From NCBI GenBank assembly GCA_964545165.1, contig CAZJEQ010000005.1, positions 7,072 to 71,071 on the forward strand: 64,000 nt of DNA, in the 5' to 3' direction. Origin of the DNA: an uncultured Candidatus Saccharibacteria bacterium (lineage in GTDB: Bacteria; Patescibacteriota; Minisyncoccia; Phycocordibacterales; UBA2100). The notes beneath the pieces are model-generated. The model saw only the letters and a list, made by a program, of their open reading frames with translations. It searched no databases and was not told the DNA's origin. The position numbers and the translations under genes are program-made. Positions within the stretch are counted from its first letter, which is position 1. Every line of letters begins with the position of its first letter. Below, in pieces: positions 16,946 to 64,000 of this stretch.

Positions 16946-16970
16946 ACTGTTGGTAAATTGGATTGTAGCA

Positions 16971-18920: not shown

Positions 18921-18923
18921 AAT

Positions 18924-20117: not shown

Positions 20118-20146
20118 GGCGTAAGAAGTCTCTGTATTTTATCACC

Positions 20147-21355: not shown

Positions 21356-21396
21356 GTTGGTGCAATTTTATCACGCACTGTGCTACCCTTTCCTCC

Positions 21397-22152
21397 ATGC
21401 AGTGCCCGCGTGCCGCCATATTCGATCTCGATGACACGCTCGCGGAGAGCTTCCAGCCGCCGAGCGATGAGATGATCGCCCGCCTTCTTCGATTGCTCGA
21501 TCATATGCCGGTCGCCATCCTCTCCGCCGCTGGCTTTCCGCGCATCGAAGCGGATTTTCTTCACAAAATGGCCGTCTCGGCGCGGATTGATGAGTTTTAT
21601 ATTTTCCCGAATAGTTCCGCACAGTGCTTCATGCACGAACACGGCGCCTGGAAAAAAGCGTACGACTCCGTCCTCACCGAGGAAGAGCGCGCTGCGATCA
21701 AAGCAGCCATCACCGAGAGCGTCGCCGAGGTGCAGCTCGAGCTTGATCCGCGCCATGCGCCCATGATCATCGACCGCGATGTCGAGATCGCGTACGCAGC
21801 ACTCGGCCTCTCAGCACCGGAGGCAGACAAGCTCGCATGGGATCCCGACAAGACCAAACGCAAAATGCTCAAAGCCGCACTCGACAAACGACTCCCGAAT
21901 TTCGAAGTCCTGATTGGTGGGAAAACGACCATGGATATCACGCACAAGGGCATCACCAAGGCCTATGGCGTCGAATGGTTTAGCAAAAAGCTCGGCATCC
22001 CGACGAGCGACATGCTCTACGTGGGCGACGCGTTTTATGAGGGCGGCAACGACGCCGTCGTAATCCCCACCGGGGTTGTCACGCGACCGGTTTCAGGCCC
22101 AGAAGAGACTGCCGTGGTGTTGGATGAAGTCCTCGCAGCGTGCAGCGCATAA
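21397..22152 (+). CDS. HAD-superfamily hydrolase (Cof/IIB-like)
   Basis: 251 aa, ...AAIFDLDDTLAES... motif I; ...YVGDAFYEGGND... motif IV. Confidence 0.7.
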   Translation: MQCPRAAIFDLDDTLAESFQPPSDEMIARLLRLLDHMPVAILSAAGFPRIEADFLHKMAVSARIDEFYIFPNSSAQCFMHEHGAWKKAYDSVLTEEERAAIKAAITESVAEVQLELDPRHAPMIIDRDVEIAYAALGLSAPEADKLAWDPDKTKRKMLKAALDKRLPNFEVLIGGKTTMDITHKGITKAYGVEWFSKKLGIPTSDMLYVGDAFYEGGNDAVVIPTGVVTRPVSGPEETAVVLDEVLAACSA

Positions 22153-22157
22153 TGCGA

Positions 22158-33412: not shown

Positions 33413-33424
33413 ACTCTGATCTGT

Positions 33425-33498
33425 TGGTGCGGGATGAGGGAATCGAACCCTCGACCTATGCTTGGGAAGCACATGTTTTACCACTAAACCAATCCCGC
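33425..33498 (-). tRNA. tRNA-Gly (CCC), CCA encoded
   Basis: GCGGGATTGGTTTAGTGGTAAAACATGTGCTTCCCAAGCATAGGTCGAGGGTTCGATTCCCTCATCCCGCACCA; canonical cloverleaf with T-loop TTCGATT. Confidence 0.85.
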
Positions 33499-47413: not shown

Positions 47414-49471
47414 CTATCGCTGTTTCGGCCCAACACGAACAATTTGCGACTTTTCGGAGTAATTCCCAGCAGAATCATAGACCCGCAGCACCAATTTCTG
47501 ATCGCCCGATTCAAGAAACGGGACGAAGAGCTCGGAACCTATGGGAAGAAATAATCGATTACCGAGGTCAACATAGTAATTTTGCTGAATGCCGCTTCCC
47601 GCATCTTGCGCTTCAAATGCGAAGCGCACCACATCACCTTCCGCGATATGTTCCGAGCTCAAGTGTATTGAAACGATCGCGGGCGGGCTCTGATCTGCCT
47701 GCAAACGATAGTGCGCGACAGGTCCTCCTCCTGCGAGCTGGAGATGAAAGTAGAAAATACCGTCTCCCGGGATAGGCACCGTGACCGCCGGATCCTGCGT
47801 CGTGTGCTCCTTGGAAGGGATGGTCTGCGGCAAGGTGTCGAAGGCGTATGCATACACTGCTCCAGGCTTACCCCGCCACACGAACCGTGCTTTCGATGCA
47901 TTGTACCAACGGCTCTGATTCGGATGGGTCGGAGAGAAAAGTATAAACGACCGGTTGCTTTCAGTGGTCGTAGCCGTAGCCATAAGTAAGGTGGGATCAA
48001 AATTGTCTACTCGATAACTTCCTGCTTGCGCCATACGCAACACATTCGTGCCCAAACCGTCGCTGGCGAGCACGTGTGTATTTTCGTTGTCAAAAGAAAG
48101 CGTAAATGTACCGGTGCGTCGTGGCAAAACGACAACGTCGGCGATCTTATGTGATCCTCGCTCTCCTCCCGATTTGAAGAAAGCGCAGGTCAACTTCGCC
48201 TGGCCGAGAGACGCATCGATCCTACTCTCGATCACATACGAGCAGGTGGAACTCGCCACTTCGAGCGCCTTGACTTCGATCGCTTCCGGGTCAAACGCGA
48301 GCTGCACCTCAACAACATTAATCGGCTCATCCCCCGTATCAACAACGATCGCGAAGCGCTGCTCGAAGCCCATCTCGTAGATCCCGAATTCTGGCTGCAA
48401 TCGGAGGGTGGAATTATAGAGGGGGTAAGGAATTCGATTGAGTTTGAGGTACCCGACATTCTGCAGGTGCAGCGCAAAGAGCGCGAGCACCAGAACGAGG
48501 GAAGATGCAAGCGTGAGTAGCAGGTAGTAGCGCCATGCGCGCTCCTCGCCTCGCATACGCACATGGAATCGAAGGGCGAAGAAAATAAACGTGCATACGG
48601 TCAAGAGTGCTGTCGCGAGATGCAGAATATCCGAAAAATCCGTACGCGGAATAAACACGAGCGCTCCGCCAGGGCTCTGTTCAAGGCCAGGAAAAACAAT
48701 ATTGGTAACAAGGTAGAAGCGACCGTCACTGAACGAGATGGTTTTTCCGGAATTGCCCTCCTGGACCCAATCGGAATGCGAGTGGAAATAAGAATTCACC
48801 AGCGTGCGCGTCTCAGGATCGGAAAAGCTGTCGCCATAGACACCGAATTCACGTGTGTAAAACACGACTTCAACGCCGCGCGGCAGAAAGCTATCTCGGA
48901 AACGAGTAGCGTACGCATCGTCCATCAGGTGATTCGCGAACACCATCCCGATCATCTGATCCTCGTGCATGACACGCCTGCCGGTCGTCATGATGAGCTG
49001 CGTCGGATCAAACCCGGAGATTTCAATACTCTCAACAGTGCCGTGGATATCACCGGCACGGCCGTGCGGCGTTGTGATAAAAGCGTTATTGCCGAGATTA
49101 CCGACGCTCATCGTACGGCTCAAAAGCGTGCCCTCCTTATTGGTGATACCCATAAGCCCGATCTTCCGCACTGCTATTTCGGCCTTGCTGATCTCGATCA
49201 GTTTTTCCGAATCTTGTGCAATGAGATATTTCTGCAGCAGATCGTTTTGGGCAACGGCATCACCTTGCTCCTTGAGGTACGCCATGTCTTCGGCAATTCC
49301 TGCATGAAAAGCATCGGATGATTTGGTCTCGATAGAAGAAACGTACAGTGCCCCACCGATATGGAACGTTACGAAGAGAAACAGGAAAACCCCAAGCGTA
49401 ATGTAGAGCGCCTTCAGGAGGGATTTCCCTCGACGAATGAGATCCGGATCATACCAGGAATGTCGGCTCAT
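47414..49471 (-). CDS. hypothetical membrane protein with large extracytoplasmic domains (685 aa)
   Basis: N-terminal TM, roughly 250-aa domain, TM pair near residues 300-345, C-terminal roughly 340-aa domain; no confident family. Confidence 0.5.
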   Translation of the reverse strand: MSRHSWYDPDLIRRGKSLLKALYITLGVFLFLFVTFHIGGALYVSSIETKSSDAFHAGIAEDMAYLKEQGDAVAQNDLLQKYLIAQDSEKLIEISKAEIAVRKIGLMGITNKEGTLLSRTMSVGNLGNNAFITTPHGRAGDIHGTVESIEISGFDPTQLIMTTGRRVMHEDQMIGMVFANHLMDDAYATRFRDSFLPRGVEVVFYTREFGVYGDSFSDPETRTLVNSYFHSHSDWVQEGNSGKTISFSDGRFYLVTNIVFPGLEQSPGGALVFIPRTDFSDILHLATALLTVCTFIFFALRFHVRMRGEERAWRYYLLLTLASSLVLVLALFALHLQNVGYLKLNRIPYPLYNSTLRLQPEFGIYEMGFEQRFAIVVDTGDEPINVVEVQLAFDPEAIEVKALEVASSTCSYVIESRIDASLGQAKLTCAFFKSGGERGSHKIADVVVLPRRTGTFTLSFDNENTHVLASDGLGTNVLRMAQAGSYRVDNFDPTLLMATATTTESNRSFILFSPTHPNQSRWYNASKARFVWRGKPGAVYAYAFDTLPQTIPSKEHTTQDPAVTVPIPGDGIFYFHLQLAGGGPVAHYRLQADQSPPAIVSIHLSSEHIAEGDVVRFAFEAQDAGSGIQQNYYVDLGNRLFLPIGSELFVPFLESGDQKLVLRVYDSAGNYSEKSQIVRVGPKQR

Positions 49472-50862: not shown

Positions 50863-51015
50863 CTAATCCTTCTTTTCTGCATCCGAGAATACGCCTCTGA
50901 TGCTTTTGATAGCGTCGCCTATGCCGCGAGCAAGTTCTGGGATCTTCTTAGGACCAAAGATCAACAGAAGAATAGCGGTCAGAATAATGATTTCAGTGGC
51001 TCCAAGTCCAAACAT
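50863..51015 (-). CDS. tatA: twin-arginine translocase subunit TatA/E (copy 1, divergent)
   Basis: Not in ORF track (50 aa): MFGLGATEIIILTAILLLIFGPKKIPELARGIGDAIKSIRGVFSDAEKKD. Its start overlaps tatC 3' end by about 23 nt in another frame. Confidence 0.7.
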   Translation of the reverse strand: MFGLGATEIIILTAILLLIFGPKKIPELARGIGDAIKSIRGVFSDAEKKD

Positions 51016-51724
51016 AAGATCTGCTGCTATTGAATAATATTGTCACTTCATACAACAACACAAGCGGGACTGTCATCGCCGCTAATGATAGGACGTCGGT
51101 TGGTGGAAGTAAAGCTGCCAGCAAGGCGAACACGAAATAGGCTATACGCCTCTTATCCCGGAGCGTCTGGGGTGTCATTATCCCCAGGCGCATGAGGAGC
51201 GTGAGCAGCAATGGGAACTCAAAAACAAACCCCAAGAGCGCTGCTGTGACAAATATTTCAGAGAGAAACTGACTGATATTCCAAATGTTGGCGATTCCGA
51301 GACTCACGTTGATGGCAGCAAAGAGCCCGAGCGCATAGTAAAGAATAAAAAATCCATACACAAAGCCGGCGATGAAGAGTGCGATGCTGACCGGAATTGA
51401 CTTCAATAGCCTGACCTTCTCACTGCTCGTGAGTGCCGGCGCAATAAAGACGTAAAAGCTGTAGATGACATACGGCGCCGAGGCGACGATGGCGAGGAAG
51501 AATCCGACATCCATGGCGACGGTCGCAAACTGGAATGGTGAGGTGGTGGCGATAACCACATCTTCAAAATGGACGAAGCTCAGTGCCTTTTTTAAAATGA
51601 TTCCTGCCGAGAGAAACCCGGTGACGAAAACAGAAATAAACAGAACAACGCCCCAATACAGACGATTGCGCAGATCTTCCAAATAGGGAAGAAATTTTTC
51701 CATGTCCATAGAGAAAGATTCCAA
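50993..51724 (-). CDS. tatC: twin-arginine translocase subunit TatC
   Basis: 243 aa, six TM helices, typical TatC topology. Confidence 0.8.
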   Translation of the reverse strand: MESFSMDMEKFLPYLEDLRNRLYWGVVLFISVFVTGFLSAGIILKKALSFVHFEDVVIATTSPFQFATVAMDVGFFLAIVASAPYVIYSFYVFIAPALTSSEKVRLLKSIPVSIALFIAGFVYGFFILYYALGLFAAINVSLGIANIWNISQFLSEIFVTAALLGFVFEFPLLLTLLMRLGIMTPQTLRDKRRIAYFVFALLAALLPPTDVLSLAAMTVPLVLLYEVTILFNSSRSYVWTWSH

Positions 51725-51849: not shown

Positions 51850-52014
51850 TTATTGTGTCCCCGTCTCCTTCTTGTCACCATCTGAAAACCCACTTCTGAT
51901 GTACTTGAGAGAATCGCCAATGGCTCGTGCAAGTTCTGGAATCTTCTTTGCACCGAAGAGCAGAACGAGGATGCCGGCCAAAATGATGAGCTCTCGAGCT
52001 CCTAATCCAAACAT
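51850..52014 (-). CDS. tatA: TatA/E (copy 2)
   Basis: ORF 51850..52056 trimmed to MFGLGARELIILAGILVLLFGAKKIPELARAIGDSLKYIRSGFSDGDKKETGTQ. Confidence 0.75.
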   Translation of the reverse strand: MFGLGARELIILAGILVLLFGAKKIPELARAIGDSLKYIRSGFSDGDKKETGTQ

Positions 52015-52246
52015 ACTTTTGTATTGCGTCCTAAATTTTATAATGACCAACCTCACACCTATACGAGGTTCGTCTTAATTACTGTGTCCCCGTCTCCTTC
52101 TTGTCACCATCTGAAAACCCACTTCTGATGTACTTGAGAGAATCGCCAATGGCTCGTGCAAGTTCTGGAATCTTCTTTGCACCGAAGAGCAGAACGAGGA
52201 TGCCGGCCAAAATGATGAGCTCTCGAGCTCCTAATCCAAACATACG
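51853..52246. repeat. tandem direct duplication (229-nt unit, 164 nt at 100% identity) carrying tatA
   Basis: 51853-52017 and 52082-52246 match base for base; the spacers differ. Confidence 0.85.
52079..52243 (-). CDS. tatA: TatA/E (copy 3, identical protein to copy 2; not in ORF track)
   Basis: Sequence 52083-52246 is identical to 51854-52017 and encodes the same 54-aa TatA; the only coding difference is a synonymous CAA-to-CAG. Confidence 0.7.
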   Translation of the reverse strand: MFGLGARELIILAGILVLLFGAKKIPELARAIGDSLKYIRSGFSDGDKKETGTQ

Positions 52247-52298: not shown

Positions 52299-53183
52299 CT
52301 ACCCTGCCACTCCCGCTGGCTCGGGCTCGGGAGCTATGACGGGCGTTGATGTCGAGGTTGGCTGCGTTTCTGGCTCTGGTTCTGGTTCGGCCTCAGCCTC
52401 TGGCTCTGCTTCTGCTTCCACTACCGGCTCGGGCTCCGGGTCTGGTTCTGGCTCTGCTTCCACTACCGGCTCCGGGTCTGGTTCGGGCTGCGGCTCTACT
52501 TCTGGCTCCGGTTGTGGCTCAGGTTCAGGTTCAGGATCCGGCTCGGGTTCGGGTTCGGGGTCCGGTGTCGGATTTACTACCGTAATACGATGGCGATTGA
52601 GCCATTCTGCCACCGCGGTCACGCCCGCCTGCCACGAGTCATACGTGCGCGTGTTGCCATCGTCATCATTACCCACGTTGCCGGGATTAGTGGTACTTAC
52701 CGCGAGTCCAACCGTACCGATGCGCGAATCTTGTTCCATGATCGCCACCATGAGTCTCGCATCTACGCTATAGGCGAGCGCAGCACTCATCACCATCTCC
52801 CCTGTTACCGGAGAGGTCGGATATTTGCCCCGAATATACGCTTCGGCTTGCTCTGCAGTATCCATCACCCCCATGGCGGCCAATATATTCATTATCTTCT
52901 CCTCATGCAGGGGGTCGGTCGCATACGAAGTAATGTCGTACTGGCCCAGCACAGCGACCGAGCCGTCGGTGATGACCTCGGCAAGCGACGCATCTTTGAC
53001 CGCCGCTGATGCTGACGCGTCAACCAGGAGACTCAGCTTAAAAAGCGTATCTTCCAGGGAGAGAATTTCTTTCTCAGCCGCGACAACGCGCTCCAAATCG
53101 CCACTCATGGTGGCATAATTTTGAGAAAGTTTGAATTCTCTCAACCTGTTATTGAGAAGTTGCACGAGATCTTCTACTCTCAC
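52299..53183 (-). CDS. peptidoglycan hydrolase (glucosaminidase-family domain) with N-terminal coiled coil and C-terminal (Pro-Glu)n low-complexity tail
   Basis: 294 aa. ...[13 protein letters not shown]...NPGNVG...[18 protein letters not shown] parallels the FlgJ/glucosaminidase motif AQAALESGWG...NLFGIK.... C-terminal roughly 100 aa is [13 protein letters not shown]... Confidence 0.55.
52336..52570. repeat. hexanucleotide-periodic (GGNTCN)n microsatellite-like tract encoding the (PE)n tail
   Basis: ggctctggttctggttcggcctcagcctctggctctgcttc... with period 6 over about 230 nt. Confidence 0.6.
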
Positions 53184-53205: not shown

Positions 53206-53661
53206 TTATTTCAAACCCAAAAACTTCGCGACGGTGAGCGTGCGCATGAGCTGATCATGCTCCTCTTCAGACAAACCACTTCCGCTATTCGAAGTCGTTA
53301 CAATCATGCCTGCGGAGTTGTTTGAGCGTACCGATACTTGATTCAGGTTGACTCTATCAGCGATGTTGTTGTTGGCACCGACCAGGTTTACCGCGTACTG
53401 GCCATCCTCAAAGGTGATGGTGTACGGGGGGATGATTGCAACCACACGTGCGAGCGTCAGCCCTCCGAGTGTCACTTCGGTATTGTGAGTGTGAGTATCT
53501 GAAAAGGGCACCCCTTCAACGTTGTCCTCAAGGTCCTTCAACGTCATGCGAAAAGCGTCTACGTCGAGCTCCCTAATTTCAGAGGGACTCGACTGAACAA
53601 GCGTCATGTCCGCCTTCGGGACGCTAATTACTTTGGTCGCCCAATTGATAGTGATGGCCAT
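53206..53661 (-). CDS. hypothetical protein (151 aa) in fibre-protein operon
   Basis: Complete ORF; 1-nt gap to the upstream gene. Confidence 0.45.
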   Translation of the reverse strand: MAITINWATKVISVPKADMTLVQSSPSEIRELDVDAFRMTLKDLEDNVEGVPFSDTHTHNTEVTLGGLTLARVVAIIPPYTITFEDGQYAVNLVGANNNIADRVNLNQVSVRSNNSAGMIVTTSNSGSGLSEEEHDQLMRTLTVAKFLGLK

Positions 53662-53662
53662 A

Positions 53663-56600
53663 CTATTGATCTGCGATCATGAGGACCGTCGTGTCGAGTC
53701 CGGTAGCGGTGATCGTGCCCACGATGGTGCTCGTTTTGTAGTAGGTCGCGGCAGAGCCCTTCCTGATCTTTCCTGTCACTGGTTGCGAGGCAGAATATTC
53801 AAAACTACTGGTTGTCACCTTGCCGTTTGAACCCGTTAAGCCAGACAATATGACTGCAGTGGATGTAACCGTGCCTGTTGCTGGCGTTGCCGGGGACCCA
53901 CTTACGGTGTAATCGTACGCATTTGTCGTGACGTTGGAGATAATATAGGTGCCGTTGTATTCGTCTTGGTTGGCCCCTCGGATAATAATTGTCTGTCCTT
54001 CTGACATGCCGTGCGACGAATGGGCAACGGACGCGGTAGCACCGGAGCGCGTGATCGTTACTGTCGCATTCGCGGGGAGTGGCCCGCCCGTATCTGCTTC
54101 CATCAAGACCCGCGCCCCTTCGATAGCAGCGAGGGTATCGGCATCCTTTGCGGTCACCGTGACGCTGACCGTATCGAGCGGGTACGTCGCTGCTCTATGG
54201 GTGGACGTGGCATTAGTGAGCATATACAGCGAGGTAATGGCCGTGGCGTTCGTCGTCGAGGTCGAGATCTTCACCTTGAGCGGTGTGCCACTTGATGCGG
54301 AAATCGTTTCGTTTGGCAGCTGGTTGAATCGCAATGTGCCGGAGACCGTACCGATGTTCGCGATGGTCACGACGATCGTCGTGCCATTGGTGATGCTTTG
54401 CACCTGTGCGAGCGGTGCAATGTTTGTGCCAAACACATAGTCATTTTGTGCTACCCCCGTGGTACTCGTCATCGTCACGTTCGTCTGACCACTGGTGCCT
54501 CCCCCACCCGCTCGGGGATATGACAAATTCTTAAACGTGGAGCCCCCGTTTACCGAGTAGGTGACGTCGTAGTTGGTAAGTGTACCTCCCGCCATGACCG
54601 CTTCTGCGGCGATAAAGCTGCCGTGCCCTTTGAGATTATAGGGATAGGTAAATGTGACATTGTCATTGACGACCGGCATGTAGAGTCCTCCCGCTGAGGT
54701 AAAGGCTGCGGTGCCGCCCAGTGCGACCTGTGAAGAGGTGTCTGAGGTCGACTCATTCATCTGCAGTGCCACGCGACCATTGATAGGCACAAAGGTGAGC
54801 GTGCCCGACGTCGAGCCGGCATTGAGACAGGTGAATTGAAACGTATTGGCGGTATTCACAGGCGAGGCGACCGCCGTGATCTGGGTGAGCGTCTTGACGC
54901 CAAGGACAATAGCCGCAGCCGAGCTTGTCACGGTCACTAAAATGGTATCGCCGACTCGGAGGCCATGAGCAGTACTGGTGACAGTCGCGACGGTTGTCGC
55001 GCGGGACCAGGAAACACCGGAGATGTTGGCTGGTTGATTTGTCGTATAGGTGTCTAGAAAGTGCGTACCATACGTGGATGTTTGGGCGGTCAGCGCTGGC
55101 GTCGACTGCAAGCCCTTGATCTGCGTATTAAGCATCGGCACCAATTGCACGCCCCACTCCGTGCCCCACACGTCCTCGAGGAGGAGATTCTTCACCGAGT
55201 TGTCACCCGTGGTCATGATGCCCGTGCGAAGATGCGGGGTGTAGCACCGCTGGATCTTGACCGTGTTGGCGGCGCCTCCCGCGACGAAGTTGACCAAGGC
55301 GCCGGCCATGCAGGGATAATAAGAAAGGTTCTGCCCCGTCGTCTGTCCCGCGTTGGTCACCGTCACGGTAAAGGTGTCCGCCGTCGGTGCGGACGCCAGT
55401 GTCCACAAGGTAGCGGTGGTCGTGGTAACGACTTTTGGCGCCACATCAGAGCACATGTTGACGGCGATGATATCGCCGGTCTTGAGGCCGTGGGCAGTTT
55501 TGGTGACCGTTGTAGTTGTCGTTGACCTGGTCCAGGTGGCATCGACGTAGGCACCGCCCATATCCAAGGGAGACGCTGCCGTGCCGAGATTGCGCAGAAT
55601 GATATTGCTGCATCCGGCGATACCAATGTTGAGTACTCCCGAATAGGGCTGACACAGTGTGAGCCCCCCAAAGCTCAGCCCGTCAAATTTCAATGCGTAC
55701 GAAGCGGCAGTTCCTAAATCCCATACATACATGGGCAGTGCCGTACCGGTCGTCGTCGCGGGATTGTCAAAATAGGTGGTGTTGGTGAATGTCATAGTAT
55801 TACACCCCACTATCAGTGCGCGACCGCCGCCCAGAATGGGCGTGACGTACGTGGTCGTCACCACACGCACCAAGCTATAGCTTCCCGTTGTTGCGTTGCC
55901 GGCTTTGACCAGCGACATCGCAAAATCGTTGGTGACCGTCAGCCCCGACACGTCAGTCAGCGATACGACATACGCGCCAGAGCCGGCCTGCGCTGCTCGA
56001 AACCATTTGCAGCCGGAGATGGTGCCGCCGGCGAAACAAAGGCTCATCGTCAGTGCTATTTGGGTGTTGGCTGCTTCTTGACCGACGTTCACATTGCTCC
56101 AGGCAATGGGAGACGCGATTTCAGTGGCAACAAGTGCCGTGAGAATACCCACGTTGGTGAGCGCCAGCGAATACGGCTGGTTAATGTTCATGTACCACCC
56201 GATGCTTGCTTTATCGATATCGATCGCTCCGCCGCCGGTCGTCGCAAACTCGAACCGCGTGGCGAGCGTGGCATTGGGGAGCACATTTGCTGTTCTCGCG
56301 GCCGTCGTGCAATTCGCAAAGAAAATATTCGGTATGCGGATCTTTCTACCGCTTGGGACGATGTACCCACCAGTGGAATTCGTTCCATCATGCCCGAATC
56401 TCAGTACTCCGGCAGTGGAGATCCAACACACCTTACCGCGCACTGCGTCAGTTGCGATACTTGCCGCGAGCGCGGTAAGTGAGCCTGCACAGGGGTAAAA
56501 TTCATAGACGCCGCTCGACGTTGCCGTTTCCACTTCTACACCGGCATGATACTGGAGCATGCCGCTACTCGGTATCTGATAGGTCGTTGCACGATTACCA

Positions 56601-57148
56601 TCCGTCGTTCCGATTTCGAAATAATCCCCGCGCACTTTAAATAAATTGAGGCGGTTGACCGTGCAGGTACCGGCTTCGTCTCCCACTATTTCGAGCCAGC
56701 CAGCCACATCTGCTCCCGTGGCTGAGGCACTGATACCGGTCAGCGCTCCCGAGCTGTACGCCACCGAATTCCACTGTTTGATCTTGATATACCCCGATGC
56801 GGGCATTGATGCGCCGGTCGCGGTGGAGGCAGCGGTCAGCGCAGAATACACCCCGATCAATTTACCGGACGCACTGCCTTTGGTAATGGTCGTATTCCAC
56901 GCGGGCACGGTACCCGATCCGGTGTTATACGGGATCAGTCGCACGAGTGTGGAATTGACTTCCACCGTACCGCCGAGCGTTGCGGAGAGTGTGACCGTCC
57001 CCCACGAGGCGGAGGTGGTCTGGTTCAGACCGACGCGGGTATCTTGGTCTACCGTCAGGTAGCCACCGTTCACATTGTAGGTATCTCCTCCTCCTTTTGA
57101 GGTCAGCTCGTCTATGTTTTGTGCGGTCGTGACCGTAAACGTCGCCAT
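53663..57148 (-). CDS. very large Thr/Ser/Gly/Ala-rich fibre-like (tail-fibre/adhesin-like) protein, 1161 aa
   Basis: No signal peptide. About 20% Thr. C-terminal triplicated roughly 60-aa module around HGLKTGDIIAV, HGLRVGDTILV and HGMSEGQTIIIRGANQDEYNGTYII. TATAAT 6 nt upstream of ATG. Confidence 0.55.
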   Translation of the reverse strand: MATFTVTTAQNIDELTSKGGGDTYNVNGGYLTVDQDTRVGLNQTTSASWGTVTLSATLGGTVEVNSTLVRLIPYNTGSGTVPAWNTTITKGSASGKLIGVYSALTAASTATGASMPASGYIKIKQWNSVAYSSGALTGISASATGADVAGWLEIVGDEAGTCTVNRLNLFKVRGDYFEIGTTDGNRATTYQIPSSGMLQYHAGVEVETATSSGVYEFYPCAGSLTALAASIATDAVRGKVCWISTAGVLRFGHDGTNSTGGYIVPSGRKIRIPNIFFANCTTAARTANVLPNATLATRFEFATTGGGAIDIDKASIGWYMNINQPYSLALTNVGILTALVATEIASPIAWSNVNVGQEAANTQIALTMSLCFAGGTISGCKWFRAAQAGSGAYVVSLTDVSGLTVTNDFAMSLVKAGNATTGSYSLVRVVTTTYVTPILGGGRALIVGCNTMTFTNTTYFDNPATTTGTALPMYVWDLGTAASYALKFDGLSFGGLTLCQPYSGVLNIGIAGCSNIILRNLGTAASPLDMGGAYVDATWTRSTTTTTVTKTAHGLKTGDIIAVNMCSDVAPKVVTTTTATLWTLASAPTADTFTVTVTNAGQTTGQNLSYYPCMAGALVNFVAGGAANTVKIQRCYTPHLRTGIMTTGDNSVKNLLLEDVWGTEWGVQLVPMLNTQIKGLQSTPALTAQTSTYGTHFLDTYTTNQPANISGVSWSRATTVATVTSTAHGLRVGDTILVTVTSSAAAIVLGVKTLTQITAVASPVNTANTFQFTCLNAGSTSGTLTFVPINGRVALQMNESTSDTSSQVALGGTAAFTSAGGLYMPVVNDNVTFTYPYNLKGHGSFIAAEAVMAGGTLTNYDVTYSVNGGSTFKNLSYPRAGGGGTSGQTNVTMTSTTGVAQNDYVFGTNIAPLAQVQSITNGTTIVVTIANIGTVSGTLRFNQLPNETISASSGTPLKVKISTSTTNATAITSLYMLTNATSTHRAATYPLDTVSVTVTAKDADTLAAIEGARVLMEADTGGPLPANATVTITRSGATASVAHSSHGMSEGQTIIIRGANQDEYNGTYIISNVTTNAYDYTVSGSPATPATGTVTSTAVILSGLTGSNGKVTTSSFEYSASQPVTGKIRKGSAATYYKTSTIVGTITATGLDTTVLMIADQ

Positions 57149-57161
57149 GTCACCATTATAA

Positions 57162-57317
57162 TCATTTTATAATGATAATGCGTCCGTCTTGTGTGTCCTG
57201 GCACGTGAGCGAGCCCGCGACCTCTTGATTGCCGTGGACATTGACGTACACAGTACTATCGCCTGGCATCGTGGCCAGCATATTGGAGAGGCTGTTGACG
57301 AGTGCTTGGAGTTTCAT
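57162..57317 (-). CDS. possible 51-aa protein between zinc-ribbon gene and giant fibre gene (not in ORF track)
   Basis: MKLQALVNSLSNMLATMPGDSTVYVNVHGNQEVAGSLTCQDTQDGRIIIIK; starts 8 nt after the zinc-ribbon gene stop. Confidence 0.3.
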   Translation of the reverse strand: MKLQALVNSLSNMLATMPGDSTVYVNVHGNQEVAGSLTCQDTQDGRIIIIK

Positions 57318-57325
57318 TCGTCATT

Positions 57326-57520
57326 TTATTGCTCGCTCGAGCTCTCCTTCCACATTTTGAATGATTCTTTCTGATGCTTCACCGGCACTTTCCGCTCCTT
57401 AGGACTCTCTACCACCACTTCCACATATGGCGTATGACAAAAGGGACATGCGGTGTCCGTCTCGGTGTGCATAAAGTGTTGCCCACACTGCTCATTCGTA
57501 CATTTGACGACCTTATCCAT
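57326..57520 (-). CDS. small zinc-ribbon protein (64 aa)
   Basis: CTNEQC...CPFCH (two CxxC pairs). Confidence 0.5.
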   Translation of the reverse strand: MDKVVKCTNEQCGQHFMHTETDTACPFCHTPYVEVVVESPKERKVPVKHQKESFKMWKESSSEQ

Positions 57521-57540
57521 GGTATTGCATGTTTGAGATA

Positions 57541-59655
57541 CTAAGCATCTGACGTTCTGATGGCGGTCGTCGAACCACCCGATATGCCGAGCGTACCCGT
57601 CGTCTCGAAGGTCTTGATAGGTGACCCCGCGCCGCCGTCGCGAACACGGATGAAAAGGTTTCTGTCTGCGGCGTAGACACCGGTGAATGTAGCAGTCGTC
57701 GCATCGGCAAGCTTGTCTATGTAGCTCAAGAAGACATTGGCGCCATTGGAGGCGTTATTTCCCGAGAAGTCTGTTGAGCTGATGGTAAAGGTCGACGATG
57801 CCCATGCGGAATAGGCATGGCGTGTGTATTGGCCGTCAGCGCGCTTGATTCGGATCGTCCCCGTGTTTGGCGTGTCTGTCGGAATCGAGCCATTGACCAC
57901 CACCGACGTGACCGTGCCCCCCGTGAGCGCACCATTGAGGTTCATCTGTCTCAGATCAATATCTGCTGACACCGAGCCATTGACGGCAGCTGTGGCAGAT
58001 GAGGTGCCGCCCGTGATGGTGGAGTTGTCGGTCGGCACCGAGCCCGTCAACATCTGACCGATAGACATAAAGCCCGTGGTGCCATTGTCGTACAGCTCAG
58101 CGAGGCGCGCGGTGCCGGAGGGCGAGGTAAAGGTAAGCGTTTCGCCAATAGTGAAGGGGCCTCCGGATTCCGCATCATATTGAAAACGGTAGCCCTGGGG
58201 AGCGACGAGCACGCGATCCTCGCCTGAAACGATACCGGAAACCGTAAAGGTGACGAAGTTTGGCGCCTGGTATTGCGTGTTGGTAAGGTCGAAGACCTTG
58301 TCATTTTGACTCAAGTCAGCAGACTCGATGCCCACACCGTACGCACCGATGATAGCTGAACCAGTCGAAGCACCGATAAATGGTGTCGAAACGGTTCTCT
58401 CGGTTACCGTGACGTTTACGAGACAAGTGGCACCGGATGTGCCTCCCGTGATCGTCTGGTTGTCTGTCGGCGCAACCCCGGTGAGGAGCTGGATCCACAT
58501 ACTCGTTGCCGCGTTGACATCGTTTACCGCAAGCATCTGCCCCGTACCGCCTGACCACGAGACTGCTTCATACGCTGAGAAATCAGTCCCACCCTGGCCA
58601 TCGGTAGTGATCTGATGCGTGATACCGCGGAAGAGCTCGCCATTCAATCCGTAGAGGGTGGTCCCCGAGCCATCTCGAGAGATGTACTTCATCCGCTCGT
58701 AGAACTGGTTGATGGTGTAGGTGTCTTTGTTCCACTCTGAGTAGTAGTACTCGTCAGTGGCATCGTTGTTGACGTCGATGCCGTTGTAGCCAGAGGTGGT
58801 GTTGGTGATCGACGTATACGTCGCGATCGTCGTCGCCGAGGTGGTGTTGTTGAGATCCGATGCGGCCGCGAGCGCCACCACGTTGATACCGCGCGTTGTA
58901 CCGTTGACCTTAAATTCGAGGTACGTCCTCCCCCATTCACGAGTGGTGGCGATAAGGCGGCGACCGTCGGTATCAGCGCCACCGGTGCGCACCTTCATCA
59001 TAAAGTTGTGCGAAATACCGTTGGCAGAATCACTGTTGAGCCCGTCTACGATGAAATACGCATCCGAAGCATCCCAATCGTTGTCAGTGCCCCCTTGGAG
59101 GGTCCCCGTGATGGTCGTACCGGTGTTTCCGGTAATCGTGGCGAACGAACCGTCTGTGGTATTCCTGATTCGGTAACCAATCCATTGGTTCGTTGTCCAC
59201 GATTTCGTGCTATCCGTGAGGACCGCGGCATTCGCTGACCCCGTGTGCGTCCCTCCTTCTGAATAGTTCCACCAATCATCTGAGAGCACCGCACCAGCTT
59301 GAATGAATTGCACCGCGGTGCCGATGGGCGCGAGGATCTTGATACCGTCGTAGATAACAGCTCCCGATGACTGGATAATGGAGCCATCGTAAATGTGTTC
59401 GGCTGCGGTGTCGTCAATATTCCATCCGTTTATAAGAGTGACGATGTTATCAGTTGAGCGCTCAGAGGGAGTGGTATCAGTGATGTCGAGCTCATCATTG
59501 CCGGAATATCCCGCATCGTCCGCGAAGTCTTGGATGGCGCGGTGAAATTCGATGACCGTAGCATACGAGGGTGACGCTCCCGTGTGATCATGACCGGTAT
59601 AGCGAATGTTCCCTGTTTGCCTATCGAGTGACCAGTCTGCTGCTACGAATGCCAT
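57541..59655 (-). CDS. large Thr/Gly/Ser/Asn-rich fibre-like protein, 704 aa
   Basis: MAFVAADWSLDRQTGNIRYTGH...; no signal peptide; composition and size resemble phage tail fibres or cell-surface fibres. Confidence 0.55.
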   Translation of the reverse strand: MAFVAADWSLDRQTGNIRYTGHDHTGASPSYATVIEFHRAIQDFADDAGYSGNDELDITDTTPSERSTDNIVTLINGWNIDDTAAEHIYDGSIIQSSGAVIYDGIKILAPIGTAVQFIQAGAVLSDDWWNYSEGGTHTGSANAAVLTDSTKSWTTNQWIGYRIRNTTDGSFATITGNTGTTITGTLQGGTDNDWDASDAYFIVDGLNSDSANGISHNFMMKVRTGGADTDGRRLIATTREWGRTYLEFKVNGTTRGINVVALAAASDLNNTTSATTIATYTSITNTTSGYNGIDVNNDATDEYYYSEWNKDTYTINQFYERMKYISRDGSGTTLYGLNGELFRGITHQITTDGQGGTDFSAYEAVSWSGGTGQMLAVNDVNAATSMWIQLLTGVAPTDNQTITGGTSGATCLVNVTVTERTVSTPFIGASTGSAIIGAYGVGIESADLSQNDKVFDLTNTQYQAPNFVTFTVSGIVSGEDRVLVAPQGYRFQYDAESGGPFTIGETLTFTSPSGTARLAELYDNGTTGFMSIGQMLTGSVPTDNSTITGGTSSATAAVNGSVSADIDLRQMNLNGALTGGTVTSVVVNGSIPTDTPNTGTIRIKRADGQYTRHAYSAWASSTFTISSTDFSGNNASNGANVFLSYIDKLADATTATFTGVYAADRNLFIRVRDGGAGSPIKTFETTGTLGISGGSTTAIRTSDA

Positions 59656-59746: not shown

Positions 59747-60658
59747 TCACGAATAGCTCAAAGAGGCGCGATTATCCCAGATCTGATCAAACACTCCCGT
59801 ACCTGCCCATTGGATAACGATGCCAGAGGTGGAGTCGACTTTTTTGATACGCCATGACGCGGCAGATGTAGCTGATCCGATCGCCGCTTCGCCGACATAA
59901 TCGACTGAGCCTACCGTTGCCAGCCGAAGCGAGAATTTGAATCCTCCAAAAGAAATCGTTTGCAGCGTTGTCTCGGTAGACGCTGATGCAGGGAGAGCTG
60001 AGCTCAACACGTCGACCTGCACATGGCGGTCGGCATCGACGAGGCCGCTTTTGGCAACATCTCCCGAGTCACTAAAGCTGCTGGATCCCGCGCCCGGAAG
60101 CGAGGTGACCTTGACTGCCAACGACCCCGAATCAAACGTGAGGTCTGAGGTCTTCAGCAAGGTCGAGAGCGTTTCTTGGGTGGCCGGATTTATTCGGGCA
60201 TTGGAAGCATTTTTGACCCCCACGACACCGGTCGTCGGTGAACTGCCCATGATTAAAGCATCCGCTCCTTTTGGCATGAGCTGTGAGGCAACGAGTCCGG
60301 CACCAGCAATGCCCGCGGCTTTGATAAAGGTCCTTCTATGCGTATCTCCGACCGTTGTTTTGGCGGAGAGGTCCAGCGGTATCGTAGGTTTCTGCTCCTG
60401 CGAAACTGCTGCTACCTGTTCTGTCGTCGACGAGAAATCTGATCCGGCACGCCGTCTTCTCACCAAAGAAAAAGAGTGCGTATTGGGCAAAAACGCGCTT
60501 GCATCATATGCGAGCCCCGCACCAGCGAGTGCGGAAGACACCACTGGAGATTCATCATCAGAAATTGTTGCTGTCGCTGACGCTGTCGCAAACGAAAAAT
60601 CTGACCCGACATGCCGTCTTCGCACCAACGAAAAAGAATGTGTGTTTGGTAACAACAT
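59747..60658 (-). CDS. hypothetical exported protein with duplicated N-terminal leader and an internal twin-arginine-like motif (RRTFIKAAGIAGAG)
   Basis: 303 aa. Residues 1-22 (MLLPNTHSFSLVRRRHVGSDFS) are repeated at residues 55-77. GGAG 15 nt upstream of ATG. Confidence 0.45.
   Translation of the reverse strand: MLLPNTHSFSLVRRRHVGSDFSFATASATATISDDESPVVSSALAGAGLAYDASAFLPNTHSFSLVRRRRAGSDFSSTTEQVAAVSQEQKPTIPLDLSAKTTVGDTHRRTFIKAAGIAGAGLVASQLMPKGADALIMGSSPTTGVVGVKNASNARINPATQETLSTLLKTSDLTFDSGSLAVKVTSLPGAGSSSFSDSGDVAKSGLVDADRHVQVDVLSSALPASASTETTLQTISFGGFKFSLRLATVGSVDYVGEAAIGSATSAASWRIKKVDSTSGIVIQWAGTGVFDQIWDNRASLSYS
60432..60657. repeat. 66-nt direct repeat x2 (about 80% identity, 160-nt spacing) spanning the 5' end of gene 59747..60658
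   Basis: 60432-60497 vs 60592-60657. Confidence 0.6.
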
Positions 60659-60783
60659 TTTTCTATATTTTCACTCCAGTATAGCAAGCGCTTCACTGCA
60701 ACATCACGCATGCTTTCGCGTGAGCGTGGATTGTATGTGCTACACTTTTGTCAATCGGAAATGGCTCACGCAAAGCGTTTTTA

Positions 60784-63700
60784 TGGATAATCGCGCCATC
60801 AAAATCTCAAGCTATTTTTTCTTGGCGCTTTTTGTTTTTTGTTTTTGCGCGACCGATATTGCATATGCCAGTTATCAAAAGATCGCTCCGGGCGATACGG
60901 TCACGTTGGGTGAATTTGTCTTTGACGATAATTTTGTCCCGACCACAACGCCGTGCACTATCGGTATAACCAGCCCTGCGAATGTCGAGGTGGTGCCTTC
61001 GACCACGCCCATGACTGCCAACAGTGACGGCTGGCACTACTATTCCTACACGACCGCCTCCAATGCAGCTTCCGGTGTCTGGCCATCGGTGATGATCTGC
61101 GGATCAACGGCAGCCGGTGACAGGGTTTTGGTGGACAAAAGCTTTATCGTTGATTGGTCGGTGGTCTCGACGAGCACTATTAAAGGAGTGGTGGACGGCA
61201 GCCTGACGGTGGCGACGACATCGCTCTCGGCAGTCATCAACGCCAACACCAACGCCGCCGTACTATCCGCTTCATCAAGCTTGTACGCGACCCTTCCCGC
61301 TACGATCTGGTCGTTCAGCGGTAGGACGCTCACTTCTTTTGGATCGCTCGTGGCTGATACTGCCGCTGCCGTGTGGGCATCCGGCACGCGCTCCCTCACC
61401 ACCTTCGGCTCGCTCGCAACTGAGATCTGGGCAAGCGCGACCCGCACACTTACAGGCGCGGGCTTGGATACCGGCTCACTTGCCACCCTGTCCGACGTGC
61501 AGACAGCCACGAGTAGCTTGGCTTCTGCAATTACGGCAGGTACGAGTGCCGTCAATAGCAATACGAATACACAGGTCTTGAGCGCCTCATCATCACTCGC
61601 TGCAGCGATTACAGCTGGTACAAGTGCTGTTAACAGCAACACGAATGCGCAGCTGCTCGCCGCGTCCACGTCACTCGCGAATTTCATCAACAGCAATAGC
61701 AATGCGACGATTCTTGCGGCATCGACATCACTTGCAGCCTACCTTAGTGCACACACCGACGCGGCGTCAACATCGATTGCCACCTTCGTGAACGCAAACA
61801 CCAACAACACGGTATTAGCCGCCTCGACATCGATCGCTGCGTTTGTGAATGCGAATACCAATGCGCAACTCCTTGCAGCCTCTACGTCGCTTGCCACCTT
61901 CGTGAATGCGAATACCAACAACGCCGTATTCATGGCGTCGACATCCCTGGCTTCTGCCATTACTGCGGGTACGAGTGCGGTGAATACGAATACCAACAGC
62001 ACGGTATTGGCTGCTTCCACATCTCTCGCCACCTTCGTAAATGCGAATACCAATAGCGCGGTGTTGGCAGCATCCACCTCACTCGCCACATCGATTCCGA
62101 TCAATGTATGGAATGCCACGAGCCGCTCGCTCACCACCTTCGGCACACTCGTGAGCGATGTTGCCTCAGCTGTGTGGTCCTCGGGCACGCGCTCCCTCAC
62201 CACCTTCGGATCGCTCGCAACTGAGATCTGGGCAAGCGCGACACGTACGCTCACCGGCGCAGGACTCGATACAGGTTCACTTGCCACTGTCTCTGATGTA
62301 CAAACGGCCACGAGTAGCTTGGCTTCTGCGATTACGGCAGGTACGAGTGCCGTCAATAGCAATACGAATAGCACCGTATTGGCGGCATCCACTTCACTCG
62401 CGAATTTCATCAACAGCAACAGCAATGCGACCATCCTTGCGGCATCTACCTCACTCGCCGCGTACCTCAGCGCTCACACCGACGCGGCGTCCAGCTCGAT
62501 CGCTTCGTTTGTAAATGCAAACACCAACAGCACCGTGTTAGCCGCGTCGACATCGATCGCATCGTTCGTGAACGCTAATACCAATGCGCAAGTCCTGAGC
62601 GCTTCCTCATCTCTCGCTGCAGCTATTACGGCAAGCACGGGCGCGGTGAATACGAATACCAACAGCGCGGTGTTGGCAGCATCTACCTCGCTCGCCACCT
62701 TCGTAAATGCGAATACGAACAATGCAGTGTTGGTGGCTTCCACATCACTCGCTTCAGCGATTACAGCAGGCACGAATGCCGTGAATACGAATACAAATGC
62801 TGCCGTATTGTCGGCTTCATCAAGCTTGTACGCGACCCTTCCCGCTACGATCTGGTCGTTCAGCGGTAGGACGCTCACCTCGTTCGGTACGCTTGTGAGC
62901 GACGTGACTGCTGCAGTGTGGGCCTCGGGCACGCGATCCCTCACCACCTTCGGCTCGCTCGCCACTGAGATCTGGACCAGCGCGACCCGCACACTTACAG
63001 GCGCGGGACTGGATACCGGCTCGCTCGCGACCGTCTCTGATGTGCAAACGGCGACGAGCTCGCTCGCTTCTGCCATCGTGGCCGGAACGAGCGCAGTGAA
63101 CAGCAACACGAATGCGCAGTTGCTCGCCGCGTCCACGTCGCTCGCGACCTTCATCAACAACAATAGCAATGCGACCATCCTTGCAGCATCGTCATCGCTC
63201 GCGGCGTATCTCAGCGCTCACACCGATGCGGCGTCAACATCGATTGCCACCTTCGTGAACGCAAACACCAACAACACGGTATTGGCAGCCTCAACATCGA
63301 TCGCTGCGTTTGTGAATGCGAATACCAACAACACTGTGTTGGCAGCGTCTACGTCACTGGCCTCTGCAATTACCGCCGGAACGAGCGCGGTGAATAGCAA
63401 TACCAATAGCACCGTATTAGCCGCGTCCACATCGCTCGCTTCAGCAGTTGCGGCAGGTACGATTGCAGTGAACAACAATACCAACAGCGCCGTGTTGGCA
63501 GCATCTACGTCGCTTGCCACATCGATCCCGCTCAACGTCTGGAGTGCGACGAGTCGCTCGCTCACCAGCTTCGGCACACTTGTGAACGATGTGGCCACCG
63601 CAGTGTGGTCCTCGGGCACCCGCTCCCTCACCACCTTCGGATCGCTCGCCACTGAGATCTGGACGAGCGCGACACGTACGCTGACGGGTGCAGGGCTCGA

Positions 63701-64000
63701 TACCGGATCGCTCGCCACCTTCTCTGACGTCCAGACCGCCACGAGCTCACTCGCATCAGCCATTACTGCTGGTACGAGCGCGGTGAATACCAACACGAAT
63801 GCACAGGTCTTGAACGCTTCCTCATCTCTCGCTGCAGCAATTACGGCAGGTACGAGTGCCGTCAATAGCAATACGAATGCACAGGTCTTGAGCGCGTCTT
63901 CGTCTCTCGCTTCTGCAATTACCGCCGGAACCAGCGCGGTGAATGCGAATACGGATGCGCAGGTGCTTGCGGCGTCCAGCTCACTCGCCTTTTCGATCCC
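60784..64000 (+). CDS. giant secreted repeat protein (>1072 aa, 3' end beyond window) built from nested 18-aa repeats
   Basis: Uninterrupted plus-strand reading frame from ATG 60784 to the window edge, so absent from the ORF track. Signal peptide MDNRAIKISSYFFLALFVFCFCATDIAYA. 54-nt units of type LAASTSLATFVNANTNNxV. The four minus-strand ORFs at 61046..63871 are its antisense shadows. Confidence 0.7.
61271..64000. repeat. nested coding repeats: 54-nt (18-aa) units inside roughly 0.7-0.8 kb super-repeats (four copies)
   Basis: 63-nt identical blocks at 61271-61333 and 62815-62877. TIWSFSGRTLTSFG / NVWNATSRSLTTFG motif recurs at about 61291, 62093, 62839 and 63531. Confidence 0.8.

Follow-up and report, generated by a model that had tools for sequence, protein, structure and literature searches.

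A putative coiled-coil surface fibre of Patescibacteria with predicted dockerin-cohesin anchoring

Several described systems bear on the gene analysed here, termed the fibre gene, the 5' part of which occupies the plus strand at 60783..64000 of a 64,000-nucleotide stretch of Patescibacteria DNA (contig CAZJEQ010000005.1; "the window" refers to this whole stretch). One such system is cohesin-dockerin anchoring, known from the scaffoldins and anchoring proteins of the cellulosome and from non-cellulosomal pairs such as the cohesin-FN3 of Clostridium perfringens GH84C (PDB 2w1n). As in that system, relatives of the fibre protein end in a type I dockerin that has two Ca-binding repeats, a cohesin-fold domain is predicted on a membrane-bound partner, and the partner genes adjoin the cargo gene. 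The locus differs in that the cargo is predicted to be a non-enzymatic coiled-coil fibre, with no glycoside hydrolase or scaffoldin; that the anchors use a C-terminal transmembrane (TM) helix rather than SLH domains or sortase, and belong to Patescibacteria; and that the cohesin-like domains encoded downstream are too divergent for Pfam thresholds, the pairing here being only predicted.

With the trimeric autotransporter adhesins (YadA, SadA and UspA1), the fibre has in common an N-terminal tip domain, a C-terminal anchor and, between them, a long repetitive stalk, here a predicted coiled coil. Periods of 15 and 19 amino acids (aa), which depart from the heptad, are typical of autotransporter stalks, and both occur in the fibre. 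In the coiled coils of these adhesins, Asn at heptad position d coordinates anions (chloride) on the axis, and the V-N-x-N-T-N of the fibre, whose Asn and Thr recur in the predicted core, resembles their (I/V)-x-x-N-T-x-x N@d motif (PMC13580157). Unlike the adhesins, the fibre has no YadA-type beta-barrel anchor, no head or neck domains, and no Pfam or PDB match; in the complete homologs, which end in dockerin, there was no match to the YadA anchor. Because both the beta-barrel anchor and a sequence match are missing, we place the fibre outside the autotransporter family. To our knowledge, Patescibacteria are also without a recognised outer membrane, unlike the autotransporter hosts.

With the fibrillar coiled-coil surface proteins of monoderm bacteria and archaea, such as streptococcal M protein and Staphylothermus tetrabrachion, the predicted fibre has in common a long alpha-helical rod that extends from the cell, with a repeat number that varies by lineage; the fibre differs from them in its predicted anchoring by dockerin, not LPXTG or S-layer, in its almost uncharged composition of Ala, Ser, Thr and Asn, and in the RTLT modules (described below) that interrupt the helix. 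A further comparison is with phage proteins containing the RTLT repeat (IMG/VR loci L085, L089 and L090), in which an 18-22-aa repeat, up to 60-74% identical to that of the fibre over short stretches, follows an N-terminal region that, by eye, looks like an immunoglobulin (Ig)-type domain. Unlike the fibre, these proteins have no signal peptide, no arrays of N-x-N-T-N helical units, and no dockerin. In function the fibre would behave like a surface protein anchored by cohesin and dockerin, and in its tip-stalk-anchor layout it resembles a trimeric autotransporter adhesin or an M-protein-like fibril, but the family, its two repeat types and its conserved anchoring and export cluster would be new; the literature searched on dockerin or cohesin together with Patescibacteria, the candidate phyla radiation (CPR) or Parcubacteria held no description of the family or the gene cluster.

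The interpretation that we favour, and consider reasonably probable, is that the gene encodes a Patescibacteria coiled-coil surface fibre that is Sec-secreted, non-enzymatic, and docked to the membrane by a dockerin-cohesin interaction. The region is best explained as the 5' three-quarters, approximately, of a chromosomal gene of Patescibacteria (Parcubacteria/Paceibacteria-type); the window as a whole is chromosomal, carrying LepA, MurJ, HisRS, a B12-type ribonucleotide reductase, TatC, and three tRNAs.

Translation showed the plus frame of the fibre gene to be open from an upstream stop at 59898 through the last base of the window, 64000. The open reading frame (ORF) starts at the ATG at 60783, which is followed by MDNRAIKISSYFFLALFVFCFCATDIAYASYQK, and has a second in-frame ATG at 60735 as an alternative start; from 60783 it comprises 1072 codons with 0 stops, and its C-terminus lies past the window end. 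The earlier note, made from the sequence alone, had read the plus strand as open from an ATG at 60784: the open frame is as it described, but the ATG is at 60783, and a start at 60784 is ruled out by 36 stops in that frame. The ORF list that accompanied the note omits ORFs running past the window end, which is why the fibre gene is absent from it. On the minus strand, the list has exactly four ORFs in this region (61046-61702, 61739-62434, 62474-63178, and 63218-63871); the earlier note had called them artefacts and we agree that they are not genes, as they are not conserved in related loci and their products have no meaningful Pfam match.

The evidence for the plus strand is comparative. Its product has 144 database homologs (best E = 9e-147), with which it has both the N-terminal domain and the repeats in common, and the N-terminal domain is modelled with high confidence (see below). 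In 66 related loci the plus ORF is unbroken, and the longest antisense ORF there reaches a median of 0.26 of its length. One further argument was dropped. Differences between repeat copies fall mostly at plus-frame codon position 3 (e.g., 11, 4, and 40 at positions 1, 2, and 3), but the first bases of the antisense ORFs (61702, 62434, 63178, and 63871) are, by frame arithmetic from the coordinates, all at plus-frame position 2. Because the third position of all four antisense ORFs thus coincides with that of the plus frame, this wobble test cannot separate the strands. Ala accounts for 20% of the protein, Ser for 17%, Thr for 16%, and Asn for 9%, and charged residues are nearly absent; the lesson for annotation is that a wobble-aligned antisense frame of an Ala/Ser/Thr-rich repeat yields convincing false ORFs. 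We have very high confidence that the fibre gene is real, lies on the plus strand, and encodes a secreted fibrous protein of its family, the coding strand being the one that the earlier note had chosen.

An exhaustive HMMER search with aa 25-262, over 1.84 billion representatives, retrieved 714 clusters (50% identity) at E <= 1e-3, with 304 remaining at E <= 1e-10. The fibre is a member of this uncharacterised family, which numbers at least 714 clusters, almost all of them from Patescibacteria. Neither Pfam nor NCBIfam has a model for this family, and those homologs that have a source name are hypothetical proteins of Patescibacteria metagenome-assembled genomes (MAGs). In GTDB species genomes we found 79 fibre loci; many are third-party annotation (TPA) records with generic labels, and the informative titles name Parcubacteria, Paceibacteria, Zambryski-, Taylor- and Doudnabacteria, and Sungiibacteriota. 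The N-terminal domain is common to 85 of the 120 matches listed.

Complete relatives have, in order, a signal peptide, the N-terminal domain, RTLT modules in varying number, accompanied in some members by N-x-N-T-N units, and a C-terminal part consisting of a second MG2-like domain, a further beta-sandwich domain, a poly-Gly linker and the dockerin. By this comparison, the unseen C-terminus of the window copy would have the same composition: second MG2-like domain, beta-sandwich, poly-Gly linker, and type I dockerin. Measured from the start of the N-terminal domain to the stop, complete relatives are 215-2243 aa long (median 761), and the window copy is at least 1048 aa. The earlier description of the protein as "giant" was therefore overstated; the window copy is among the longer members of its family, but is not unique. 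The rod is evidently modular, judging from an insert in a 1256-aa Taylorbacteria homolog (P0020). In this homolog a different repeat, K-T-K-T-D-T-I-x-W-x-D-(V/I)-T-G with a period of ~11-13 aa, is present at aa ~290-410 and ~640-760, and an extra domain is located ahead of the dockerin.

The first 29 residues (60783..60869, plus strand) were predicted, from the sequence, to be a Sec-type signal peptide with cleavage at AYA|SYQK. This signal-peptide-like N-terminus, MDNRAIKISSYFFLALFVFCFCATDIAYA|SYQK, has a mature start, A-x-A|(S/A)YQ, that is kept in the aligned homologs, which bears out the clear signal peptide already reported from the sequence. It is followed by ~130-150 non-repetitive residues, in good agreement with the roughly 160-aa non-repetitive domain of the earlier note. 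This N-terminal domain (~aa 30-128; 60870..61166, plus strand) includes the most conserved motif of the family, GEFV(F/Y)DD, as well as two nearly invariant Cys residues, and AlphaFold2 (AF2) modelled it as a beta-sandwich with a predicted local distance difference test score (pLDDT) of ~90. A Foldseek search of the PDB with this model matched MG2 of human alpha2-macroglobulin (2p9r_B; E = 1.4e-4, TMt 0.65, root-mean-square deviation 3.9), along with C3 and bacterial alpha2-macroglobulins. Many uncharacterised Caudovirales proteins and the N-terminal domains of BppU were matched about equally well; because phage Ig-like domains score similarly to MG2, we regard the domain as a generic Ig-type sandwich, and as MG2-like by fold only. 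Pfam MG2 (PF01835) aligned at aa 36-102 with 18.4 bits (E = 0.0028), below its 32.8-bit cut-off, and this sub-threshold match was the only one obtained when Pfam, NCBIfam, PHROGs, and PDB sequences were searched with the fibre protein.

Repeat units were delimited by using the recurring motif N-x-N-(T/S)-(N/D) as an anchor. The anchor spacings in the fibre protein are 19, 26 (= 19+7), 34 (= 19+15), and 105 aa, and Tandem Repeats Finder, which is independent of the anchors, returned periods of 57 and 78 nucleotides (nt). The repeat unit is thus 19 aa (57 nt; consensus STVLAASTSLATFVNANTN), with variants of 26 aa (78 nt; AQVLSASSSLASAITAGTSAVNSNTN) and 15 aa. The 18-aa (54-nt) unit proposed in the earlier note has to be revised, its own consensus having 19 positions; a spacing of 18 aa is present only between the W-x4-R-x-L-T motifs within modules. 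The 105-aa interval corresponds to a distinct RTLT module, in which three W-x4-R-(T/S)-L-T-x-F-G-x-L units, spaced 22 and 18 aa, are followed by GAGLDTGSLATLSDVQTATSSLA. In total, the fibre protein in the window has 12 W-x4-R-(T/S)-L-T motifs with spacings of 22 and 18 aa; across the family, spacings of 18, 20, and 22 aa were counted 175, 108, and 71 times, respectively.

Modules and helical units alternate along the plus strand. The first RTLT module, M1 (aa 158-262; 61254..61568), comprises three units plus GAGLDTGSLATLSDVQ and a flanking helix, and is followed by helical unit array 1 (aa 263-424; 61569..62054), with units of 26, 19, 34 (= 19+15), 19, 19, 26, and 19 aa, each terminating in N-x-N-T-N. 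Next are M2 (aa 425-529; 62055..62369), array 2 (aa 530-672; 62370..62798), M3 (aa 673-777; 62799..63113), array 3 (aa 778-901; 63114..63485), M4 (aa 902-1006; 63486..63800), and array 4 (63801..64000), which has 26-aa units and is cut by the window end. Each 105-aa module together with its helical units makes up a super-repeat, and the four super-repeats that had been recognised earlier are indeed present, starting at aa 158, 425, 673, and 902 (spacing 267, 248, and 229 aa). They alternate in an ABAB pattern: A-type and B-type modules are ~79% identical in aa, M1 and M3 are 93% identical in aa and 82.5% in nt, and M2 and M4 are 92% identical in aa and 83% in nt.

At the DNA level, the longest exact match between copies is a 65-nt block that recurs 1545 nt away (61269 and 62814), followed by one of 56 nt (61761 and 63228), in keeping with the report of long identical blocks 1.5 kb apart. 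These blocks had been taken as a sign of concerted evolution; however, the copies are only ~82% identical in nt, the differences lie mostly at wobble positions, and the two halves of the repeat region show a mosaic of identity, from 61% to 100% when taken in windows of 45 nt. Old duplicates kept by purifying selection, with gene conversion no more than patchy, would give such a pattern; strong homogenisation that is still going on would not. The blocks had also raised the possibility of assembly collapse, which is unlikely within the window because no exact repeat exceeds 65 nt. An artefact of assembly in the ORF or in its number of repeats, through a collapsed or chimeric repeat, would fit the ends of 10 of 76 related loci inside the fibre gene (L028, L030, L040, L051, L057, L062, and L083, among others), as well as the end of the window itself; but with copies that differ by ~17%, a frame intact over 3.2 kb, and an architecture that recurs in dozens of independent assemblies, we see very little chance of this. 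Fibre genes do often break assemblies, and MAG annotations probably contain too few members of the family, often in truncated form.

An AF2 run with the monomer (aa 25-530; 20-row alignment of N-terminal fragments) yielded a single uninterrupted helix at aa 236-422 (187 residues, pLDDT 70-86), spanning the first unit array. The best argument for a coiled coil is provided by the unit lengths, which correspond to 15/4 = 3.75, 19/5 = 3.80, 26/7 = 3.71, and 34/9 = 3.78 residues per turn. Insertions and deletions thus come in whole helical turns, so that one periodicity is kept, a property that would be odd for a beta-solenoid. (The earlier argument that 18/5 gives a straight helix falls with the 18-residue period.) At 3.8 residues per turn, L10, V14, A6, T18, T2, V3, and N17 form a seam. 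A helix of this kind, without charges and with a seam of hydrophobic and polar residues, could not be stable on its own; a parallel homo-oligomer is therefore most likely, and the unit lengths and the seam suggest packing into a parallel homo-oligomeric coiled coil, most probably a trimer, with ~3.75 residues per turn. By analogy with the stalks of trimeric autotransporter adhesins, Asn/Thr layers would occupy the core of this coiled coil. The visible helical stretches amount to ~646 residues, which at a rise of ~1.5 Å per residue gives ~100 nm by our own estimate, and the predicted fibre would be roughly 100 nm or more in length.

Several observations tell against the coiled-coil reading. AF2 confidence in the RTLT modules is low (pLDDT ~40), and AF2 tends to give helices for low-complexity repeats; a PDB search detected no sequence similarity between the fibre and solved autotransporter stalks; and the hydrophobic harmonic at 3.76 residues is matched in strength by others near 2.1 and 3.26, such that periodicity alone is not decisive. 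Hydrophobic periodicity was dropped as a lone criterion, alpha and beta structures not being separable by it. The harmonic near 2.1 residues would be expected if the repeat region formed a beta-solenoid, which the earlier note had offered as the alternative to a long fibrous rod; but AF2 predicts one continuous helix, and units of 15, 19, and 26 aa, differing by about one and two helical turns, would give irregular solenoid coils. We consider a beta-solenoid most improbable, and a helical coiled-coil rod likely; the rod half of the earlier proposal is retained.

The neighbourhood of the family was surveyed by tblastn in the 76 GTDB loci whose match to the N-terminal domain lies on the plus strand, and four loci (L001, L003, L004, and L005), all of which have the same cluster, were read in detail. 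Pfam Dockerin_1 (PF00404; 22.9-bit cut-off) was matched by homologs P0001, P0008, and P0009 with 50.4, 26.3, and 34.9 bits, respectively, and the dockerin motif is present in 54 of 66 complete fibre genes. In 61 loci the fibre gene is complete and is followed by 2.5 kb or more of DNA; in all 61, there is a same-strand downstream gene whose product has a signal peptide, an N-terminal cohesin-like domain, Ig domains, and a C-terminal TM helix, and in 56 of the 61 there are two such genes, encoding ~290 and ~570 aa. Sequence matches of the downstream proteins to cohesins are weak (Pfam Cohesin at E = 0.015 for the protein of L001; Ruminococcus scaffoldin cohesins at E = 0.02-0.04 in profile searches of the PDB), and the evidence for their identity as cohesins is weak but consistent.

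Stronger evidence comes from a paralog within the window. A minus-strand gene (47414..49471) encodes a membrane protein, the C-terminal half of which aligns with the downstream cohesin-like anchors (BLAST and alignment). AF2, with 24 homologs, modelled this protein (pLDDT 90, predicted template modelling score 0.81) as a cohesin-fold domain (~47999-48421) followed by two Ig-like domains. In Foldseek searches its first domain matched six different cohesins with TMt 0.73-0.77 (4uyp_C 0.77, 6kgf_C 0.73, 4ums 0.73), and also superposed on a cohesin-FN3 pair. Two of its homologs, P0141 and P0145, pass the Pfam Cohesin (PF00963) cut-off of 24.1 bits, with 25.8 and 27.0 bits. The cohesin fold and the threshold-passing matches therefore belong to the window paralog and its homologs, and not to the downstream proteins.

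Taken together, these data suggest a route to the cell surface. The fibre would be exported via Sec and would then oligomerise; its C-terminal dockerin would bind the cohesin-like N-terminal domains of the one or two single-pass membrane proteins encoded directly downstream. Held on the cell in this way by its C-terminus, the fibre would present the conserved Ig domain at its distal tip. Three points count against this anchoring. A tblastn search with the dockerin found no match within the window, since the window stops at aa 1072, inside the repeats; neither an exact 41-mer nor the exact sequences of two neighbouring proteins (704 aa and 303 aa) had a match in the public collections searched, leaving the contig unextended; and the cohesin-dockerin pairing is predicted from synteny and fold. 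We nonetheless consider dockerin-cohesin anchoring likely, with the C-terminus of the window copy lying outside the window. If correct, this would be a non-cellulosomal use of cohesin and dockerin to mount a structural fibre. An essential dockerin-domain protein has been noted in a Saccharibacterium (PMC10633639). In L003, a set of type IV pilus genes (PilM, PilO, PilB, PilT, and PilC) is found (16189-23174 of a 590-kb contig, GCA_964566795.1) 3 kb downstream of the fibre and cohesin genes.

As to function, an adhesive role is plausible, and we speculate that the fibre attaches the cell to a substrate or to another cell, whether host or partner, and may do so in concert with the Tat-exported proteins of the cluster. 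A host-specific adhesin that evolves rapidly is hard to reconcile with the strong conservation of the tip domain. The same conservation, extending across at least 79 species, favours an alternative in which the fibre, anchored in the same manner, is a non-adhesive structural component of the envelope, such as an S-layer stalk, spacer or sheath element; so do the wide variation in rod length (215-2243 aa) and the proximity of the gene to the housekeeping export genes TatA and TatC. On the other hand, Pfam revealed no S-layer-type domains in the fibre protein, and there is a single copy per locus, with an Ig-like tip. The two roles are computationally indistinguishable, and we judge the envelope component to be the less likely, although a serious, alternative to the surface fibre described above.

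The RTLT repeat is not confined to the fibre family. An IMG/VR scan identified it on at least 110 viral contigs, which matched the module and helical part of the query but not the N-terminal domain. The viral proteins are 320-650 aa in length, with 2-8 copies of W-x4-R-T-L-T-S-F-G-T-L-V-x-D and an N-terminal region that resembles, by eye, an Ig-type beta domain; one is encoded beside portal, head-morphogenesis, and endolysin genes. This occurrence fits a fibre-forming repeat. Examples among L085-L164 (IMG/VR) come from many environments and include L085 4566-6104, L089 4572-6170, and L100 3939-5894, the last of which also has many W-T-(D/N)-(A/E)-R-A-A-K-L-D-N-L-D-A-x-(I/V)-S-S-R-A repeats. 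The RTLT repeat has no Pfam model and no annotated PHROG, a triple unit had no match in the PDB at E <= 10, and RTLT segments had none in INPHARED phage genomes by tblastn with the low-complexity filter on; the 18-22-aa W-x4-R-T-L-T repeat itself appears to be undescribed.

A second link to phages is a block of three minus-strand genes (53206..59655) that encode proteins of 704 aa (57541-59655), 1161 aa (53663-57148), and 151 aa (53206-53661). Full-length homologs of the 704-aa protein, 40-78% identical, are found on at least 263 IMG/VR contigs, one of which also encodes a large terminase and a minor tail protein. Of 32 viral loci, 25 keep the gene order 704, 1161, 151 aa. The 1161-aa protein is conserved only in its C-terminal ~70-170 aa, as in receptor-binding proteins. 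By these similarities the block is a phage structural module, with a role that is probably host recognition. The 704-type gene is present in 11 of the 76 family loci, and 38 of the 76 have, at the same position, an unrelated protein of ~800-886 aa; homology between the two was rejected (hhalign probability 0.5%).

These links allow an explanation in which the fibre is not a cellular protein but the virion tail fibre of a prophage or phage remnant, and part of the 704/1161/151-aa module. The viral RTLT repeats, the similarity in fold between the N-terminal domain and many Caudovirales proteins, including the BppU N-terminal domains, and the homology of the divergent neighbours to a phage structural block are all in its favour. 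The protein has a signal peptide, however, and its relatives a dockerin; membrane cohesin-like genes are invariably downstream; and the 704-type gene is restricted to a minority of the loci, others having the unrelated 886-type. In addition, the fibre N-terminal domain and module had no match in the 704-type viral loci, and no other phage hallmark gene (terminase, portal or capsid) was detected among the window ORFs scanned. Because of the signal peptide, the dockerin of the relatives, the invariant cohesin-like anchors, and the lack of a viral match to the N-terminal domain, the fibre gene is no simple prophage gene, and we rate a virion tail fibre as quite improbable relative to a membrane-docked surface fibre.

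The window includes the upstream half of the family neighbourhood (Tat-signal protein, TatC, and three TatA), and the downstream half lies outside it. The gene nearest the fibre gene (59747..60658, minus strand) encodes a protein with the twin-arginine signal RRTFIKAAGIAGAGL (TIGR01409, E = 2e-4, above the cut-off), and is 62% identical to the neighbour of the closest fibre homolog. Continuing on the minus strand, away from the fibre gene, are the genes for the 704-, 1161-, 151- and 294-aa proteins, two TatA-like genes (52100-52243 and 51871-52014), TatC (50993-51724; Pfam TatC, E = 3e-38), and a third TatA-like gene (50872-51015), all three of the TatA-like genes having been identified by tblastn with TatA; beyond these are a 201-aa protein, a Vut_1 transporter, and then the cohesin-fold protein. 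Upstream DNA of 6.5 kb or more is available for 40 loci; among these, a ~200-aa protein with a twin-arginine signal is encoded upstream of the fibre gene in 37, TatC in 31, and TatA in 29. The upstream genes are co-directional with the fibre gene in 19 loci and divergent, as in the window, in 18. TatA and TatC are tightly linked to the fibre gene across the family, though the fibre's own signal is Sec-type, and the anchoring model leaves the co-clustering of Tat components and a Tat substrate unexplained.

A broader proposal, which we put forward as a doubtful extension of the membrane-docked fibre, would take in these genes: the fibre might be one arm of a conserved Parcubacteria/Paceibacteria surface apparatus, in part phage-derived and with its own TatA/TatC and Tat-signal protein, that grips host cells. 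In such an apparatus, the Sec-exported coiled-coil fibre, with its phage-type RTLT repeats, would be docked to dedicated membrane cohesins, and the Tat-signal protein may allow large folded partners that have no signal of their own, here the phage tail-type proteins, to hitchhike across the membrane. The whole would be a device by which ultra-small episymbionts recognise and hold their host cells. Little is known about the attachment of Patescibacteria other than Saccharibacteria to other cells, and most of these bacteria cannot be cultured. The cluster defines a testable gene set, consisting of the dockerin fibre, two cohesin-like membrane proteins, the Tat translocase components, and the Tat substrate. 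The fibre family is also widespread: it comprises no fewer than 714 sequence clusters and occurs in no fewer than 79 species genomes, with cohesin-like genes downstream in every checkable locus and Tat genes upstream in most. The finding is no one-genome curiosity, but indicates that a bacterial radiation still poorly understood has a conserved surface apparatus, with a mechanism predicted from modelling and synteny. It also brings two undescribed fibre repeats to light, namely the 18-22-aa W-x4-R-T-L-T repeat, in common with phages, and the 15/19/26-aa helical unit with its predicted polar core.

The Tat-signal proteins have, ahead of the twin-arginine signal, the motif (L)PN-x-x-SF-x-L-(V/I)-R-(R/K), of which there are two copies in the window protein, three in that of L001 (8933-9796), and one each in those of L004 (9367-9960) and L005 (9272-9895). 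Their C-terminal domain, past a conserved ALIMGS..INPATEE, varies by cluster type, and the window type has a match on a few viral contigs, in a small protein whose gene lies upstream of the 704-like one. Profile searches of the PDB with the Tat-signal protein and with its large neighbour found nothing. The 294-aa protein (52299-53183, minus strand) has weak glucosaminidase (lysozyme-like) and weak tape-measure matches, as well as a long acidic Pro-Glu repeat, and has homologs in 16 related loci. In L001, the locus of the closest homolog, a gene of the 23S_rRNA_IVP family (8484-8861), which we take to be a four-helix-bundle family that includes the Avd proteins of diversity-generating retroelements (DGR), is located inside the cluster, and an IS200-type Y1 transposase gene (764-1429) at its edge; neither was seen in the window. 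Elsewhere in the window, the longest ORF call for a FAD_binding_4 protein (31994-33484, minus strand) overlaps tRNA-Gly(CCC) (33425-33498) on the same strand, and the true start of this gene must be further downstream.

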